From positions 232,551 to 296,550 of the forward strand of contig CAZEAE010000001.1 in the NCBI GenBank assembly GCA_964510095.1: 64,000 nt of DNA, written 5' to 3'. This DNA comes from an uncultured Elusimicrobia bacterium (GTDB lineage Bacteria; Elusimicrobiota; Elusimicrobia; UBA1565; UBA9628). The position numbers and the translations under genes were made by a program. This document shows, one piece after another, positions 57,330-63,851 of the stretch (position 1 is the first letter of the stretch; each line of letters opens with the position of its first letter). A model generated the notes under the pieces. That model was not told the DNA's origin. It searched no databases and saw only the letters and a list, made by a program, of their open reading frames with translations.

Positions 57330-57437
57330 GGCGATAAAACGGCGGAGAGGGTTGGACGCTGTTCGAAACCGAAAGTCTCACTGACGGATCGGTTTCGAAT
57401 CGAAGTTAAGCGCAGCCCCTCCGGTAAAAAGCTTATA

Positions 57438-57523: not shown

Positions 57524-59110
57524 ATGTTGCCTACGCCTATGTCCGAGGAGTTTGAATCCGTTATTAGAGGATACCGTCATCCCAGGACCGGGGAGCCGCT
57601 GAGCCCCGGAACCCGAGAAAAATATTTAGCGAACCTTCGGCTCTTTCGGGATGGAGTACTGAGCCTCTATCCCGGTCGGAAGTTCGAAGTCCTCGCCGAC
57701 TTCCTGCCGCAGGACTTGAAGGACTATAAGGGCCGTCTTGAGAGCGATAGCGGAAACATGAAGGGGATCACCATAGCGACCCGGCTCATGTGCTTGCGCG
57801 GATTCTTCAAGACGGCGTATGCCTTGAACGCCATCCCGCATGACATCATTGACGGCTTCAAGGTTCGTTGGCCGCGCTCGGAGGAACAGTACCGCCGCCT
57901 TCAACCCGAGGAGGTCGAGCGGCTTTGCTCGATTGATGAAAAGAAGCTCGCCCGCATGAACCTACGGGAGAAGTTCATCCATCTTCGAAATCGAACGATG
58001 GCCGCAGTTCAGAAAGACGCAGCCCTTCGCGCCAGCGAGGTTGTCCGCATCAGCGAGGCCGATATCCTTTGGGAAAGGCGGAGCGACGGCGGGCATGTCC
58101 CCCTCATCGTCCGCGAATCCAAGGCGCGCGTCCGAGGACACCAGGACACGACATACCTGAGCCCGTGGGGCGTGAAGCATCTCAAGCGTTACTTCGAAGC
58201 GCGCAGCGCCTATTTGGAGTCGCGGGAATTAACCCCCGGCCAAATCATCACGCCCAAGTCCAAGCAAGCGGTCGGCCCGGCCTTATTTGTTTCGCAGTTC
58301 GGCGAACCGATGACGACTCCTACGACATACCAGGATGTCATCTTCCCCGACCTCGTGAAACGGGCCGGACTGAACCAGGCGTACACGTCGCACTACCTGA
58401 GGCATACTCGAATTACTGAGTGGGTCGAATCGGGGATGGACCCGAAGCGCGTACAGAAGCTCGCGCGCCACACGGACGTTACGATGACGCTGCACTATTA
58501 TCACTTCAACGAAAAGGAACTTGTCGCCGATCTGGACAAGCGTTCCGGCGTCACCGAGCCGACGGGCGACTTTACGCATCAACTGACGCCCGAGCAGCCG
58601 GTACGTCTCGCGCTCTACCGCCACGCCCTCGCTGACGCGGGCCGGACGCCGGATGAGCCGACCCTGGAACGTCTCGACTCCACCCTTCAAGGGAACATGA
58701 AGGCAGAGGCGTTTGCTCAGGTCTATTACACCGTCCATGAAACGTGCGCCAAGCTCAAAATACAGAGGACGCAGCTTTACGTCGGCTGGATCAAGGCCGG
58801 GCATTTGCATCCGTTCAAGGAAGGCGCGCGCACCGTATTCCTCAGGACCGAGGTTGACGCCCTGGCGTCTCTTCGGACGACCGAGGAAGCGTCTCGGGCT
58901 CTCGGATACAGTGAGAAGGTTCCCGTCACCGTTGCACACATGGCCGCGCAAGGGGTACTTAAAGGAACCAAGATCGGGCGATGCTGGCGCTTCCACGACC
59001 GCGACCTGATCGAATACCTGATCGCCAAGCGGCTTGGACGCCTACGGCTCCAACAGGCGCACCGCCGCCGCACGACGCGCCCGGCCTCGCTGCAAGTCGG
59101 GATGATATGA
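57524..59110 (+). CDS. int: Tyrosine-type site-specific recombinase/integrase with two C-terminal excisionase-like (MerR/HTH_17-type) HTH domains
   Basis: Catalytic-core residues (R...HYLRHTRITEW...LHYYHF). The two C-terminal helix-turn-helix segments are TCAKLKIQRTQLYVGWIKAGHLHPF and ASRALGYSEKVPVTVAHMAAQGVLKGTKIGRCWRF. Confidence 0.75.
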   Translation: MLPTPMSEEFESVIRGYRHPRTGEPLSPGTREKYLANLRLFRDGVLSLYPGRKFEVLADFLPQDLKDYKGRLESDSGNMKGITIATRLMCLRGFFKTAYALNAIPHDIIDGFKVRWPRSEEQYRRLQPEEVERLCSIDEKKLARMNLREKFIHLRNRTMAAVQKDAALRASEVVRISEADILWERRSDGGHVPLIVRESKARVRGHQDTTYLSPWGVKHLKRYFEARSAYLESRELTPGQIITPKSKQAVGPALFVSQFGEPMTTPTTYQDVIFPDLVKRAGLNQAYTSHYLRHTRITEWVESGMDPKRVQKLARHTDVTMTLHYYHFNEKELVADLDKRSGVTEPTGDFTHQLTPEQPVRLALYRHALADAGRTPDEPTLERLDSTLQGNMKAEAFAQVYYTVHETCAKLKIQRTQLYVGWIKAGHLHPFKEGARTVFLRTEVDALASLRTTEEASRALGYSEKVPVTVAHMAAQGVLKGTKIGRCWRFHDRDLIEYLIAKRLGRLRLQQAHRRRTTRPASLQVGMI

Positions 59111-59354: not shown

Positions 59355-60173
59355 TTAGGGCGCGGCTGATTGAGCATAAGTCGGCGCAATAAGACGCACG
59401 TCAAAGTCTGCTGAGTGCTGGCCTATTTTAACGGCGTCCCATTGGGCTACGTCCATCCACGCCAGGAAATTGACTGGCTTGAGCGTTTTATTCCCGAGGT
59501 TAACCTCGAAAGTCCCGGTCAGCGGGTCCATTCCATCCCATTGGTAGGAATAGGAGACCTCATAAACCTCGCCCTCGCCTCGGATGGCCGTCCATTTAAG
59601 GTGGGAGGTTTCGATAAACTGTTTAAGCTTGTCCCCCATCTTGCGCGTATTGTTCCACTCTACATAGAGGTCGCCTATTGCGGGATTCTTCATGGTAGGG
59701 ACGATAAGGCTTGTGACAATTACGGCGCTGCCCACCGTGCAGCCGGGACGATTATGGTCGGCACATTTTGTTTTTCTGACCGTTGGGAACTGCTGGACAA
59801 AAGCGACAGCCTCGCTCCCTTGCGGCTTTGAGGGAGTTACTAGATATACCCCGCGAGCAATCGCGACCATTACACCCGCCGCTATTAACAATGTGGACCA
59901 TAAGGGCTTACGACTTTTTTCCACTTGCGGAGCCGCCACCGCGCTTTGCGGCTCCGGAGCTGTGGCCGGTTTGGGGGGCGGAGGCGGTAAGGGCGCTGCT
60001 TTGATAAAGAGGCCGCGCAGGGCGTCAAAGGTTTTGGCGGCTCGCCATTGATCGGTGCTTGAAGCCCCCTCCGGCGCGACAACTGTCTCCGGTCCAAAAC
60101 CTGGAACCGCTTTTAGTTGTTCAACCGCGTAAGGCCCCTGCGCCTGCTTGCCATCGAAAATCCAATATTTCAT
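59355..60173 (-). CDS. Hypothetical membrane-anchored protein with an N-terminal DUF4339/GYF-like segment
   Basis: MKYWIFDGKQAQGPYAVEQL resembles DUF4339; one TM helix (LWSTLLIAAGVMVAIA). Confidence 0.45.
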   Translation of the reverse strand: MKYWIFDGKQAQGPYAVEQLKAVPGFGPETVVAPEGASSTDQWRAAKTFDALRGLFIKAAPLPPPPPKPATAPEPQSAVAAPQVEKSRKPLWSTLLIAAGVMVAIARGVYLVTPSKPQGSEAVAFVQQFPTVRKTKCADHNRPGCTVGSAVIVTSLIVPTMKNPAIGDLYVEWNNTRKMGDKLKQFIETSHLKWTAIRGEGEVYEVSYSYQWDGMDPLTGTFEVNLGNKTLKPVNFLAWMDVAQWDAVKIGQHSADFDVRLIAPTYAQSAAP

Positions 60174-61102
60174 GGGAGGATATTCCCTGTGCTTTGTTTT
60201 TTCTCTTTTGTGATAGCTTGGAAGCGGGCATTGTCGCGCAGCGAATTAAATTCCCACGCGCGGTGGGCTTTCCCCGCAAACGTCTTATCCATTCGCACCG
60301 CTTCCTCAAGCGACTCTAAGGCCTGATCGTCCGATCCCGCCATAGCCAGATAAATCGCATGGGTATACCGTCCCTGCGCTGACGGGTCGGTGCTGTCTCG
60401 CTGCTTATTCGTGGGCCAGTCCGTGGGCCGCAGATTCCGGCCCCCCGCTTGAATTTTATGAAGCATGGCGGCGATCTTACGGCTGATTTCGCGGGCTCCG
60501 CGATATGTCGCACCAGAAGACGCGGACCAGAGGAGCCCATATGTAGTTGTTTGGAGCGATGCCCGGACCTCCCCCGTTCTCAGGTCAATCATCCTCGCGC
60601 TTGTCTCCACTGGATATGGAAGTAGCCCGAGAGTAATGACGGATAGAAGGCTGATATTTTCGCTTGTTTCGAGCATAATCCCGTGGGTGGCGGCTGGTTG
60701 ATATTCATTGATGTCGGTCGCCGTGGTGTGGACACCTGACAACTTGGCTTGATTGAGCCTGTCCTTGATGACGGCGGACTCAGCATCATCAACGACAGTG
60801 ATATTGCGCTTGAGGAGTTCACCTTCCATTGATGCGCGGATTCTTCTTTCGTTGGTCAAGGGGACCAATTCCCCGTCCCGGCGGCGCATGAATTTTGACG
60901 TATCCGCGTGAATTTCCAAGATGGCCACGCGCATCTTGTCGTAAGGAGGATGATCGTGGGCACAAGAACTCAAGAGAGTGGCGGATAGCAGGAGATAAAG
61001 AGCACCGCCCGGATTAACTTTTTTTATTTGCCAAGTCCATCGACAAAGATCAGGCGCTTGGAGGGCACCACGCACATTTTCCCGGGCGCACTTCTGGATC
61101 AC
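60170..61102 (-). CDS. Hypothetical lipoprotein with C-terminal TPR-like helices
   Basis: Lipobox LLSSC. The start is uncertain; it overlaps its neighbours by 4 nt at both ends. Confidence 0.4.
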   Translation of the reverse strand: MIQKCARENVRGALQAPDLCRWTWQIKKVNPGGALYLLLSATLLSSCAHDHPPYDKMRVAILEIHADTSKFMRRRDGELVPLTNERRIRASMEGELLKRNITVVDDAESAVIKDRLNQAKLSGVHTTATDINEYQPAATHGIMLETSENISLLSVITLGLLPYPVETSARMIDLRTGEVRASLQTTTYGLLWSASSGATYRGAREISRKIAAMLHKIQAGGRNLRPTDWPTNKQRDSTDPSAQGRYTHAIYLAMAGSDDQALESLEEAVRMDKTFAGKAHRAWEFNSLRDNARFQAITKEKKQSTGNILP

Positions 61103-61677
61103 CGCAGAAAATCCATCAACTTTTCTAACCAGCGCTGCCCCGCAGACTTCTGAGCGGCGGTTTCATTCGATGCCTTCGTCCCCTGTGCTTTCTGAAAACC
61201 GGCGGTTTCCGATACCAGTTCAGATTCTAGCGCGAAGAGCGGAATGCCCAATCCTCGCTCCTTATAATCGTAACGCATGTTTGCCCATTCACATTCGATA
61301 TACCTTGCGTCATAGTATCCGATGGTATCATCAGTGCGAAGCTTGCCGCTGACTTGAATAGTTTTAAGCTGCATTTTGCCGATGGGGCCAATATCTCCGT
61401 ACAGCGTAACCTGAGATCCCTTCTTCATGTTGTACAGCCCAATCGCCAGGCACATGCTTTGCATGGAGCCGCCCTGATTCTTGACCTGGACATTGAGAAT
61501 TATTTCCGAGACGCCATCCATATCCACCTTGTTTCGAGCGACATCATCGACTTTTACTACTCCATAGGACTGCTCCCGGCCTTTAGTTCCGTTGATGGCA
61601 GTCAGTTTGTCAGCAAAGATAATCGTTGCTGAGGCATGGGACGGCAATAGAAGCCCGATCAAGAACAGCATATTCAT
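61099..61677 (-). CDS. Hypothetical secreted protein
   Basis: Signal peptide MNMLFLIGLLLPSHASA; the start is placed at an internal Met of the listed ORF. Confidence 0.4.
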   Translation of the reverse strand: MNMLFLIGLLLPSHASATIIFADKLTAINGTKGREQSYGVVKVDDVARNKVDMDGVSEIILNVQVKNQGGSMQSMCLAIGLYNMKKGSQVTLYGDIGPIGKMQLKTIQVSGKLRTDDTIGYYDARYIECEWANMRYDYKERGLGIPLFALESELVSETAGFQKAQGTKASNETAAQKSAGQRWLEKLMDFLR

Positions 61678-61741
61678 AGTTATTCCCTCCAATTTATTTG
61701 CTCCTGTTTCGGGAGCAAACATCATACAAAGTTAGGCTTGC

Positions 61742-61993
61742 TTGCCCAGAAGGCAAGCAATGGCAACAATACGGAAATCCTCCTTTCACAGCGCAGCCTA
61801 TCGTCGCTTCCGTCGGAGGCTTCGGGACGCGCGGGTCGAGAACAAACTGACCCAACGGCAGGTCGCCAAGAAGCTCGAAAAACCGCCCAGCTATGTCGCC
61901 AAGATTGAGACCGGTGAGCGGCGGGTTGACTTCATTGAGTTGCAGGTCCTTGCAGCGCTCTACAAAAAACCCCTGAGCTTCTTCCAAGACTGA
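61742..61993 (+). CDS. XRE-family helix-turn-helix transcriptional regulator
   Basis: LTQRQVAKKLEKPPSYVAKIETGERRVDFIELQVLAALYKKPLSFF is a canonical HTH_XRE with a C-terminal tail. Confidence 0.6.
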   Translation: MPRRQAMATIRKSSFHSAAYRRFRRRLRDARVENKLTQRQVAKKLEKPPSYVAKIETGERRVDFIELQVLAALYKKPLSFFQD

Positions 61994-62013
61994 ACATAGC
62001 CGGTCTTGTTTTT

Positions 62014-63513
62014 TCAAAGACTCCTCAGGTGCTTCAACAGCGCGACCATGCCGAGCGTATCCTGCCCACAATGCTGCCGCAAGTCATCCGATATTTTCTG
62101 CCGTTCTTGGTCCAAGAGCCCCACGTCATTCATCAACGTCCAGTAGGCGAGCTGCGCCTGTGGGCCATCTTGAATCGCGAAATTCTTGTAGGTCATCTCG
62201 GGCACGAGCGCGGGTAGGACCGTCTTGAGCGACCAACTCCCACCAAAGGCCGGATGAACATAGAGTGCCCCCCGGAAGGGCTCTCCTATGTCCCACAAGC
62301 GCTCTGTGACCGAGTGGAGAAAGTTGTATTTGGCCGAGAACTCTACGGCCAGGCTTTTCAGGCAATCCCTTTTAAAGACCTTATTATCAACAACGACAGA
62401 ACCTTCCGGGCCGATATGTTTTCTGAGGAAGTTAACGAGGCCCAACCTGGGATCGCTCTTTCCGTCGCCCAGGTATTCGAAATGCGAGGTCGGCCAACCG
62501 TCTTGCTCTTGAATACGGATAGACGCTTGAAAGGCCACAAATTCAAACGGCCTTAAGCCGTCATACGGCGGAATCGGGAGGCTGATCGTCTCGAAATCGA
62601 GGAAGTAGAGCGGATATTTTAAGCCCTGCAAACTCTCGTCGATGGCTTCCCGGTCAATGTGGGGCTCGCCGGTCTTGGCGACTTTGACCTGGATTCGTTG
62701 GGACGGGGTCAGGTCAAAGTCGTCCGGGATATCGCGCATGAGCGTGACTCCGCGACTTTTCAAAAAGCTTCTTTCCAGTATGGGGAAGCGGTTTAGCTCA
62801 TGAGTCGAACTGGTAGGAACGGTCTTCCAGCATGAAGATTTGAACCCGCATTCAGAGGGGTAGTTGCAGCGTTCGCCGACTTCGGCCTCCGGCATTCCTT
62901 CAGAAGCGACGATGTCCTGCATCTCTCGGATTTGCCGTTTGATGCCCTGGCGCAGCATAAATTCGTCGCCGGTTGCTTCAGTCACGTTTTTAAGGGTGAA
63001 AAATTTATGCGCGTCGATATCGCCTCTGCGCACATATGAACTGGCGATGTTCAGGAGATAAGCCTGTCGGATCGGGAAACCCGCACCATGTAGGACATGG
63101 CGCTGGCTGGCGATATCGTAAAGGAAACTTTTGTCGTTGCCCATTGAGGCTTTGGCCTCGATCAAATCCCATTCCCCCGCATCAGTCCGAATCAAAACAT
63201 TGGCGCGGACAAGCAGGCCGTTAAAGAGCGCCGCCGGTTCGAAAAGGACACGGGCTCCGCTCTGAATAGCGGCCTGAGTCGCCTTGTGCGCTTCGGGGAT
63301 ATTCCCGTCATCTTCCGCGATCAAGACGCCGCCAGGGAAGCGCTTACGGGCGAGTTGAACTGCCTCGCGGCCTTGCTCGGAATAAATTTTTTGACGGGGC
63401 GAGGCTTTCGATATCAGGAGGCGGCGATGGCGATAAAGCCAAAGCGCTTTAGGGCATTGAACCCCGCGCAGATATTCGGCCTTGGACAAAATACCCGGAG
63501 TGCTGGCGATCAT
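62014..63513 (-). CDS. DUF2779-like protein: an N-terminal PD-(D/E)xK (RecB/Cas4-like) nuclease region plus a C-terminal RNase-H-like/DEDD exonuclease-like region
   Basis: N-terminus LSKAEYLRGVQCPKALWLY. A mid-region D/E-K pattern (DLIEAK). The C-terminal segment YFLDFETISLPIPPY is RNase-H-fold-like. Confidence 0.5.
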   Translation of the reverse strand: MIASTPGILSKAEYLRGVQCPKALWLYRHRRLLISKASPRQKIYSEQGREAVQLARKRFPGGVLIAEDDGNIPEAHKATQAAIQSGARVLFEPAALFNGLLVRANVLIRTDAGEWDLIEAKASMGNDKSFLYDIASQRHVLHGAGFPIRQAYLLNIASSYVRRGDIDAHKFFTLKNVTEATGDEFMLRQGIKRQIREMQDIVASEGMPEAEVGERCNYPSECGFKSSCWKTVPTSSTHELNRFPILERSFLKSRGVTLMRDIPDDFDLTPSQRIQVKVAKTGEPHIDREAIDESLQGLKYPLYFLDFETISLPIPPYDGLRPFEFVAFQASIRIQEQDGWPTSHFEYLGDGKSDPRLGLVNFLRKHIGPEGSVVVDNKVFKRDCLKSLAVEFSAKYNFLHSVTERLWDIGEPFRGALYVHPAFGGSWSLKTVLPALVPEMTYKNFAIQDGPQAQLAYWTLMNDVGLLDQERQKISDDLRQHCGQDTLGMVALLKHLRSL

Positions 63514-63536: not shown

Positions 63537-63851
63537 TCAGGCGGTGGCGCGGGTCGCGGCCAGCGCGGCGAGGCGCGGACTATTCTTGAAACGGAATTTC
63601 CGCAGCCAGGCAAAATATCCCGGCGTCCCCCTCCGGTTTTTTGTCTTGAGGACGCGGCTCTGATTCCTGTTGATCTGCTTCAGTTCCGAAAGCTGCCGCT
63701 CCTGCTCGTCGATCTGCCGCTCCTGGTCGGCAAGTAGAATTTGCGCGAACAGGGTTTTCCGGCGCGCGTCGAGAACTTTGCCGCACAAATCGGCGACCGT
63801 ATCTATGTAGCTGTCCCAGGATACCTGATAAGACGAATCTTTTAGGCCCAT
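63537..63851 (-). CDS. Hypothetical coiled-coil protein
   Basis: A 104-aa ORF in the lower-GC region with a charged, heptad-like middle (QERQIDEQERQLSELKQ). Confidence 0.3.
   Translation of the reverse strand: MGLKDSSYQVSWDSYIDTVADLCGKVLDARRKTLFAQILLADQERQIDEQERQLSELKQINRNQSRVLKTKNRRGTPGYFAWLRKFRFKNSPRLAALAATRATA

Follow-up and report, generated by a model that had tools for sequence, protein, structure and literature searches.

A DUF2779-family protein with substituted nuclease-site residues on a tRNA-Ser(UGA)-integrated island of an uncultured Elusimicrobia bacterium

Fold and relatives of the DUF2779 protein

Proteins of the DUF2779 family have been placed in a 3'-5' exonuclease clade of the RNase-H-like proteins (clade F.17), in which the domain co-occurs with a PD-(D/E)xK domain (Majorek et al. 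2014, PMC3985635). The Mycoplasma member MMSYN1_0389, which is quasi-essential in the minimal cell, has been described as comprising a Cas4-like domain and a DEDD(y) domain, and HHpred ties the family to MrfB (8UN9) (2026 mSphere, PMC13621843). The dual-nuclease-fold architecture of these proteins is already published and is not new here. We analyzed a member of the family encoded in a 64,000-nucleotide stretch of the genome of an uncultured Elusimicrobia bacterium (contig CAZEAE010000001.1, positions 232,551 to 296,550; this whole stretch is referred to below as the window), where the minus strand at 62014..63513 specifies a protein of 499 amino acids (aa; GenBank MEK7857721.1). What is new is that this protein belongs to a small island-borne clade with coordinated active-site substitutions and an orphan partner open reading frame (ORF).

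The original prediction for this stretch, made from its letters, described a DUF2779-type dual nuclease next to a small XRE-family ORF, and both ORFs exist. The family assignment also holds, with the correction that the matching profile is PF11074 and not PF10926. The match had an E value of 3.8e-30 and a score of 105.2 bits against a cut-off of 23.3, and it spanned residues 303-428 of the protein and positions 1-126 of the 126 in the profile; GenBank already names the product "DUF2779 domain-containing protein." Full-length homologues cover 98-100% of the 499-aa protein and are collinear with it. The two conserved stretches that had been singled out are real, since the N-terminal block LSKAEYLRGVQCPKALWLY fits the family consensus LSKSQYxRGxQCxKxLWLY and the FLDFETISLP sequence fits YFLDFET.

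An AlphaFold (AF2) model of the 499-aa protein was obtained with a predicted local distance difference test score (pLDDT) of 92.8 and a predicted template modeling score (pTM) of 0.89. Residues 1-232 (62818..63513, minus strand) form an N-terminal Cas4/Exo5-like PD-(D/E)xK domain, as identified by Foldseek and by a census of conserved residues. Residues 233-300 (62614..62817) form a helical linker, with a conserved IPxDFxLTxxQ block and model helices at 245-253, 270-281, and 288-295. The remaining residues, 301-499 (62017..62613), form an RNase-H-like domain of the DEDD exonuclease fold, which contains the PF11074 match and was modeled with a pLDDT of 96.0. In Foldseek searches, the N-terminal half matched the Cas4 structures 8d3l_I (type I-C; 4.7e-6), 4r5q (3e-4), and 4ic1 (SSO0001; 1e-3), and also human Exo5, AdnAB, and the Argonaute-associated Cas4-like protein ACE1. 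The C-terminal domain alone matched the exonuclease domain of African swine fever virus PolB (probability of 0.98, TM score of 0.57), as well as ERI2, 3'hExo, and RNase HI.

Cas4, with the related Fe-S nuclease domains of Exo5 and AdnAB/AddB, provides the best structural matches to the N-terminal half, and the likeness to Cas4 includes one N-terminal and three C-terminal cysteines, as in Cas4 iron-sulfur ligation. In contrast to Cas4, the window protein has the cysteine spacing C-x5-C-x5-C and Asn where the first catalytic acid would stand, and its Cas4-like domain is joined to an exonuclease domain. No cas gene was found within 10 kb on either side, nor among the 144 immediate neighbors of 78 species-representative family loci that were scanned for partners. 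The PADLOC Cas4 profile matched the protein weakly (24.5 bits, E=7.5e-6), and the Pfam Cas_Cas4 profile (PF01930) gave no match to it at E<=0.01.

The C-terminal domain resembles the YprB/MrfB and PolB exonucleases in its RNase-H-like strand order, the D-x-E in strand 1, the N-x2-F-(D/E) after strand 4, and the (Y/H)-x3-D in the last helix. Unlike YprB/MrfB, which are clade F neighbors represented by Pfam RNase_H_2 (PF13482), the window protein has Lys in place of the ExoII acid and comes without a helicase (MrfA) or a polymerase. The same two-domain pairing was noted for the TM0106/COG2251 proteins, which combine a RecB-family nuclease with RNase_H_2 (PMC3985635). Giant-virus proteins described as "YprB RNase-H-like" also superposed on the whole two-domain model, with E values down to 8e-17 and TM scores of 0.56-0.67; the giant-virus matches in BFVD included E3T4R0 (CroV), A0A3G4ZWN9, A0A5K0U8I2, A0A5J6VIM9, and A0A3G5AGZ9, at 9-13% identity. 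The giant-virus and COG2251 proteins differ from the window protein in being larger or in having AAA domains, and they are likewise uncharacterized. The occurrence of such proteins in giant viruses, which infect eukaryotes, indicates that the pairing of a Cas4-like domain with a YprB-like exonuclease is ancient or recurrent beyond prokaryotes.

Within the DUF2779/PF11074 family, the window protein shares the N-terminal LSKxxY..QCxKxLW block, the four cysteines, and the ExK, FLDFET, RLWD, and CGQD motifs. Its clade alone has N105, D376, K381, and H481; the window protein also has an orphan 104-aa partner and is encoded on a tRNA-Ser island. The mollicute members differ in another direction, being longer (the NCBIfam UU173 profile has 650 positions) and lacking two of the four cysteines (the latter from PMC13621843). 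We also observed the DUF2779 unit at the C terminus of longer proteins, at residues 913-1397 of the 1403-aa protein P0145 and in the proteins P0175 and P0225 of about 650 aa; such fusions might give a clue to function.

Active-site substitutions and selection

The family was sampled in three overlapping ways, namely, as 85 genome loci, each representing a species, from a wide range of bacterial and archaeal phyla, as the top 120 homologues, and as 140 representatives of clusters at 50% identity. Residues D105, E119, and K121, the cysteines C20, C216, C222, and C228, D306, E308, an aromatic residue at position 376, E381, D408, Y481, and D485 were near-invariant in all three samples. D105, E381, and Y481 were each present in 85/85 of the genome loci; the corresponding counts were 116/116, 116/116, and 115/115 among the top homologues and 140/140, 140/140, and 138/138 among the cluster representatives. 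In the window protein, the Asp of the PD motif is replaced by N105 (codon 63199-63201, minus strand, as are all codons given here), the family aromatic residue by D376 (Y376D; codon 62386-62388), the Glu at the ExoII position by K381 (codon 62371-62373), and the Tyr of ExoIII by H481 (codon 62071-62073). E119 and K121 are kept, as are the four invariant cysteines, D306 and E308 of ExoI, D408, and D485. The family triad D105/E119/K121 is consequently incomplete in this protein, and so is the family set D306/E308/E381/Y481/D485. Of the features that define a DEDD exonuclease, the protein shows the fold together with the ExoI and ExoIII motifs, and it has Lys at the ExoII position, for which D376 or D408 might substitute.

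The N105/D376/K381/H481 set was found, wherever the position is present, only in the window protein and in P0001, P0002, P0003, and the truncated P0053, whereas more than 300 other sampled members are canonical. P0003 carries K121N in addition to N105. P0001 and P0002 are encoded on contigs L094 and L095, P0003 on the related island L001/L002, and P0053 on the related island L096; a further related island, L006, encodes the canonical member P0004. The dual nuclease of the original prediction is therefore borne out at the level of the family, in which both the PD-(D/E)xK-like and DEDD-like folds (Foldseek, PF11074) and the catalytic residues are conserved, but only in part for the window protein and its clade, in which N105, K381, and H481 replace catalytic residues, the PD Asp having become Asn and the ExoII acid Lys, so that each site has lost one key acid. 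The original prediction named two outcomes that would refute it, nonconserved active-site residues and a housekeeping repair enzyme of core genomes; the first is partly borne out in the clade, and the second partly at the level of the family.

The placement of these residues in known motifs was examined by spacing, profile alignment, and position in the model. The D-x13-E-x-K spacing of residues 105, 119, and 121 equals that of residues 99, 113, and 115 in Cas4 SSO0001 (SSO0001 positions from PMC13621843). Alignment of the family profile with Escherichia coli RecB by hhalign put N105 at D1067, E119 at D1080, and K121 at K1082, an alignment that was not statistically significant. In the model, YNAxFE381 lies at the junction of strand beta-4 and a helix of the RNase-H-like fold, and Y481-x3-D485 forms ExoIII in the last helix. 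The ExoII motif of DEDD and PolB exonucleases is N-x2-3-(F/Y)-D, and we take the family sequence YNAxFE381 to fit it. In RNase H and integrases, the end of strand 4 carries a catalytic Asp; because D376 is located at the end of this strand, it is a plausible replacement acid. Since the other acids are strictly retained, the exonuclease site can be read as remodeled rather than abandoned.

The clade gene is under purifying selection, with intact ORFs of 497-499 aa in four lineages. The dN/dS ratio of the DUF2779 gene was 0.18-0.24 overall, over dS values of up to 0.76, with 0.26-0.31 for the N-domain and 0.12-0.16 for the C-domain, so that the N-domain is about twice as relaxed as the C-domain. 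With three otherwise invariant catalytic-site positions substituted under purifying selection, the clade can be regarded as a natural separation-of-function variant, and comparison with the canonical P0004 from a homologous island would show the activities of the family against those that the island needs.

The explanation that we favor, and that as a whole we consider to have about an even chance of being correct, is that the window protein is a divergent DUF2779 member, carried as island cargo, in which a non-catalytic N-domain and a remodeled exonuclease process DNA ends. The fold and residues show a Cas4/Exo5-like domain whose four conserved cysteines are placed like the [4Fe-4S] ligands of Cas4, and the helical linker joins it to a DEDD 3'-5' exonuclease-fold domain of the PolB/YprB type. 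Because the first acid has been lost (D105N, and in P0003 also K121N), the N-domain has most likely become a noncatalytic module that carries an iron-sulfur cluster and holds on to DNA ends or single-stranded DNA. The exonuclease domain probably still trims 3' ends, with D376 as the replacement acid and His as the general base. The DUF2779 protein is a conserved cargo of a family of small tRNA-Ser(UGA) islands that also carry a large serine recombinase, HTH_17 proteins, and a tetratricopeptide repeat (TPR) lipoprotein. Its most likely role would be to recognize DNA ends and process their 3' termini for the benefit of the island in conflicts with incoming or competing DNA, which is the weakest step in this proposal.

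Several points weigh against the explanation that we favor. The Foldseek E values for the C-domain alone are weak, the best being 1.8e-2. PDB sequence searches with the 499-aa protein and with a 31-sequence profile returned nothing relevant, and hhalign of the family profile with E. coli DnaQ gave no meaningful alignment, both of which count against the ExoII assignment; the proposal that E381 is the ExoII acid draws on the motif and on the position in the model, not on residue-level superposition. D408 could be the third metal ligand instead, and the exonuclease site would then have changed less than we infer. Asn105 can still bind metal weakly, and residual activity of the N-domain is possible. 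A literature search found no assay of any DUF2779 protein. With respect to regulation, described below, both the regulon of the XRE protein and the co-transcription of the 104-aa ORF with the DUF2779 gene are inferred from geometry only, and the XRE protein may act on the DUF2779 gene in trans via a diverged operator or through interference by convergent transcription.

RecC uses a dead nuclease fold, and Gam-type proteins protect DNA ends. By analogy, the window protein might be a catalytically dead pseudo-nuclease that acts as a decoy or shield by binding either a host nuclease or DNA ends and that serves, together with the 104-aa partner, in anti-defense or end protection. Such a role would fit the loss of key acids in both sites while the fold, the cysteine ligands, and purifying selection are kept, the occurrence of the orphan partner ORF only with the N105/K381/H481 clade, and the presence of canonical homologues as common proteins in Elusimicrobia, the host phylum. 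However, D306, E308, D408, and D485 are strictly conserved and the C-domain has the lowest dN/dS (0.12-0.16), which suggests a working catalytic center, and the 64-kb window contains no second DUF2779 copy that could be a canonical paralogue. We therefore regard a dead pseudo-nuclease as unlikely.

A related proposal, which in our view is doubtful, is that a mobile-element lineage turned a DNA-end nuclease with two active sites into an end binder that has lost catalysis in part or entirely and that, with its new 104-aa partner, functions as an end-protection, decoy, or sensor module. In such an end binder, D105N (with K121N in one member) would silence the Cas4-like site, and E381K, Y376D, and Y481H would rewire or silence the exonuclease site. 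The module would act in conflicts between the island, the canonical DUF2779 or RecBCD-like nucleases of the host, and incoming DNA. If this were true, the clade would provide a natural pseudo-nuclease counterpart inside a family without known function.

The tRNA-Ser(UGA) island and its relatives

The DUF2779 gene lies on a tRNA-integrated genomic island, in agreement with the mobile setting that had been predicted. This is indicated by a tRNA gene that marks one border, a direct repeat of the tRNA 3' end at the opposite border, the presence of integrases, and atypical GC content. A composition scan of the window showed that GC falls from about 0.67 to 0.52-0.58 past approximately 57 kb. Window coordinates were mapped onto a 21.5-kb extended locus, L003, in which the low-GC stretch is bounded, with GC of 0.50-0.58 versus about 0.65-0.70 in the flanks; the window DNA is 100% identical to contig JBBTLF010000003.1 of the Elusimicrobiota metagenome-assembled genome GCA_038068815.1. 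The island is 9.4 kb in size and is integrated at tRNA-Ser(UGA), which forms its border at L003 6691-6778, about 2.7 kb past the window end. Rfam and ARAGORN detected nothing in the window, and the island tRNA was found only in the extended locus. At the other border, a candidate attR at 57336..57356 (L003 16158-16178) is an 18/21 direct repeat of the tRNA-Ser(UGA) 3' end at L003 6764-6784 and lies just outside the tyrosine integrase gene. L003 6753 was the endpoint of two independent Logan contigs.

From the tRNA end, the gene order is serine recombinase, small HTH_17 proteins, 104-aa ORF, DUF2779, XRE, three envelope-type ORFs, and tyrosine integrase. The large serine recombinase at the tRNA end (535 aa; L003 6755-8359, minus strand) has Resolvase, Recombinase, and Zn_ribbon domains and matched phrog_95 at 3.4e-96. 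The tyrosine integrase at the attR end (528 aa; 57524..59110, plus strand) matched Phage_integrase at 3.6e-19 and HTH_17 at 1.1e-14. Like known tRNA-integrated islands, this element has a tRNA at one end, a short repeat of the tRNA 3' end at the other, an integrase by attR, and a drop in GC; it differs from the usual tRNA islands in having recombinases of two types, a large serine recombinase next to the tRNA and a tyrosine integrase by the opposite border. Pfam and PHROGs searches of the island proteins recognized no replication, conjugation, or virion genes. A prophage origin was considered and rejected, as the DUF2779 protein, the product of the 104-aa ORF, and the three envelope proteins had no match in PHROGs.

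Some details of the two recombinase genes were observed along the way. The C terminus of the tyrosine integrase (residues ~401-499) contains two excisionase-type HTH_17 stretches, an unusual fusion resembling an integrase with an excisionase. The GenBank start of this gene is apparently 78 codons late, giving 450 aa instead of 528 aa, and GenBank also appears to misannotate the other end of the island, where a 312-aa ORF (L003 7493-8431, plus strand) is called opposite the true 535-aa serine recombinase.

The orphan 104-aa ORF, which has a predicted coiled coil and a basic C terminus, is located at 63537..63851 on the minus strand, 23 bp upstream of the DUF2779 gene and in the same orientation. 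It is kept upstream of DUF2779 in L094, L095, and L001/L002, and it is 52% identical to the 96-aa protein of L001 (E=6e-35). Only four close homologues were found besides this 96-aa orthologue, and the ORF occurs only with the N105/K381/H481 clade. Its dN/dS was 0.27-0.6, and it had no match in Pfam, PHROGs, PADLOC, or NCBIfam. A 21-nucleotide (nt) tandem duplication at 63693-63729 (L003 9785-9821) repeats DQERQ(I/L) and corresponds to a 7-residue indel relative to the L001 orthologue. Given the 23-bp spacing and the conserved gene order, the 104-aa ORF and the DUF2779 gene are probably co-transcribed; their promoter would lie in the stretch that they share with the divergent HTH_17 genes, toward which the promoter region of the operon extends past the window end. 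The divergent HTH_17-like gene is separated from the operon by 543 bp, in which we observed two exact copies of GTGGCTNTTCACAGTCG, 91 nt apart (L003 9214-9230 and 9305-9321, about 190-300 bp past the window end), with one further copy in L095; this repeat is a candidate operator at which the operon's real regulator would bind.

The tRNA-Ser(UGA) gene abuts four related islands that carry the serine recombinase and DUF2779 genes, in assemblies from four different samples; its copies in the other islands lie at 1918-2005 of L002, 1220-1308 of L006, and 9995-10083 of L096. Compared with the window island, L001/L002 and L006 show identities of 61-88% for the serine recombinase, 49-74% for DUF2779, and 50-60% for the TPR lipoprotein, and the HTH_17 proteins are also common to these islands. 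Besides DUF2779, the TPR lipoprotein is the sole cargo conserved in both L002 and L006. The L006 island also bears a type II methyltransferase and a ZorD/DpdE-like SNF2 helicase. In L096 (9995-10945), a 3.9-kb deletion fuses a 3' remnant of the serine recombinase gene to codon 273 of DUF2779, and the resulting 314-aa ORF contains the exonuclease-fold half only, with D376, K381, and H481 still present. Since L096 is a decayed, half-deleted copy, the host can lose the DUF2779 gene. A second integrative element stands in tandem at the same tRNA in L096 and encodes a 422-aa tyrosine integrase, AAA_25, DUF6371, and DUF5131 proteins, and an N6_N4 methyltransferase.

These data bear on whether the window protein is an ordinary end-processing nuclease of DNA repair or recombination that merely rides the island, with its substitutions neutral or compensated and its activity as in canonical members. 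The breadth of the family is consistent with such a housekeeping function: homologues fall into 7,564 clusters at 50% identity at E<=1e-3 (2,144 at E<=1e-30), and a single peptide pattern gave at least 597 species matches across bacterial and archaeal phyla. At the family level, some members are indeed core-like or repair-like, lying beside RmuC, UvrD, or ExoVII-L in core-like regions, and the mollicute member is quasi-essential (PMC13621843); the purifying selection on the clade gene also points in this direction. However, across more than 300 other sampled members no variation was seen at D105, E381, or Y481, which argues that their change is not neutral drift, and P0003 has lost K121 as well. 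The gene is also situated in the low-GC DNA of the island, is accompanied by a recombinase gene, and has half of its length deleted in L096, indicating that it is dispensable for the host. An unmodified repair enzyme is thus improbable in the clade, and a divergent island cargo with a remodeled exonuclease is the explanation that we prefer.

The XRE gene, family neighborhoods, and defense

The original prediction held that the XRE and DUF2779 genes are divergent and that the XRE protein regulates the nuclease gene head-to-head. The XRE-family helix-turn-helix (HTH) gene (77 aa; 61760..61993, plus strand) was supported by an HTH_3 match at 5.3e-13 and by the GenBank and Logan gene calls. Its likely start is the ATG at 61760, which is preceded by GAAGG, and the TTG at 61742 is a mechanical ORF start only. 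With XRE on the plus strand and DUF2779 on the minus strand, the two genes are convergent, tail-to-tail, and the 20-bp gap between them (61994..62013) separates two stop codons, the TGA at 61991-61993 and the TCA at 62014-62016, which is TGA on the minus strand. The XRE stop codon and the gap are covered by a hairpin (61985..62008, plus strand) that resembles an intrinsic terminator, with 8 pairs and a subsequent TTTTTT; the T-run is present on the plus strand only. The XRE gene is instead head-to-head with three overlapping minus-strand ORFs of 192, 310, and 272 aa.

The divergent control region between XRE and the 192-aa ORF, at 61697..61760, contains two perfect palindromes that are candidate XRE operators. 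The first is TTGCTTGCC-N5-GGCAAGCAA at 61738-61760, and the second is TTTGCTCC-N7-GGAGCAAA at 61697-61719. The first palindrome is present as a single copy in the 21.5 kb of L003, where 0.02 copies would be expected by chance. In a scan of L003, neither palindrome recurred upstream of the DUF2779 operon, the second being without a good copy there, and regulation of DUF2779 in trans via an identical operator was rejected on this basis. The XRE gene itself recurs only in L094, a contig that is 93% identical, where the protein has 90% aa identity and a dN/dS of 0.13. It is absent from L001/L002, L006, and L096, which are three of the four related islands where that flank is visible. There is no sign that the XRE protein is a DUF2779 repressor, because the genes are convergent, a terminator lies in the gap, the palindromes occur only at the XRE gene's own promoter, and the gene is absent from related islands; neither the divergent layout nor the regulation that had been proposed is upheld.

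Whether the family is associated with defense was addressed through its neighborhoods. Among the 144 immediate neighbors, the commonest families were Phage_integrase and WYL/WCX (three occurrences each) and RmuC, HTH_17, and MazG-like (two each); GmrSD_N, SIR2, UvrD, ExoVII-L, Resolvase, and Methylase_S were seen once each. A conserved multigene system was rejected, as no neighbor family occurred more than three times. Four individual settings were seen. In one, DUF2779 was paired with RmuC in a core-like region; in another, a WYL regulator gene overlapped the start of DUF2779; a third was an island that also encoded a methyltransferase and an SNF2 helicase; and the fourth was uninformative. 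Members of the family behave like stand-alone genes, some of them core and others mobile, which is compatible with DNA-end processing in repair, defense, or both. PADLOC-DB v2 gave no defense-system match for the protein, the only hits being the weak one to the Cas4 domain and a marginal one to JetD (0.0032).

An AbiEi/AbiEii pair was observed at L003 5112-6588, on the far side of tRNA-Ser, with PADLOC matches at 1.8e-65 and 2.8e-94. The pair is bracketed by its own 50-nt direct repeats, which are 90% identical (L003 4990-5039 and 6578-6627), like a separately inserted cassette. AbiE was rejected as a member of the island, as it lies on the other side of the tRNA and inside these repeats.

The original prediction likened the DUF2779 gene to stand-alone anti-phage genes, and in its fullest form this would make the protein an active dual nuclease for defense against phages or plasmids, silenced by the adjacent XRE repressor. 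The location on a mobile island, the AbiEi/AbiEii genes 3.4 kb away beside the same tRNA, the methyltransferase and SNF2 helicase on L006, and the variable neighborhoods of canonical members, sometimes including integrases, WYL regulators, GmrSD_N, SIR2, or Methylase_S, could all be cited in its favor. However, the XRE gene runs toward DUF2779, with a terminator between the two, and is not kept together with it in related islands. PADLOC matched no system model and the Cas4 domain only weakly, PHROGs gave no match, and the clade has other residues in place of the PD aspartate and the ExoII acid. The 144 immediate neighbors reveal no conserved partner and no enrichment of defense genes. AbiE, moreover, is outside the island, within its own repeats. 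A defense role is a possibility raised by guilt by association, from the neighborhood alone, and a repressed, active defense nuclease is an account to which we give little credence. In practical terms, the analysis corrects the original prediction: nothing points to the XRE gene as a regulator of DUF2779, the architecture had been published, and a defense label is not yet supported. A decaying relic on its way to becoming a functionless pseudogene is very improbable, as the catalytic substitutions and the truncated copy in L096 that might suggest it stand against intact 497-499-aa ORFs in four lineages (dS up to ~0.75, dN/dS ~0.2), the same four substitutions fixed in all four lineages, and a highly confident structure model.

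The three overlapping ORFs divergent from XRE occupy 59355..61677 on the minus strand and were identified from the ORF list and the gene calls. They comprise a 192-aa signal-peptide protein (61099-61677), the 310-aa TPR lipoprotein (60170-61102), which has a lipoprotein-like signal (LLSATLLSSC) and a C-terminal match to NCBIfam TPR_END_plus at 2.5e-9, and a 272-aa GYF-like proline-rich protein (59355-60173). The observed geometry suggests that the XRE protein most likely autoregulates and controls this divergent operon of envelope proteins via the palindromes at 61697-61760. In L002, the lipoprotein gene overlaps the DUF2779 stop codon, and in L006 it lies close downstream of DUF2779. Because the lipoprotein gene directly follows DUF2779 in L002, the XRE gene and the 192-aa ORF of the window look like an insertion between two genes, DUF2779 and the lipoprotein gene, that were once adjacent.

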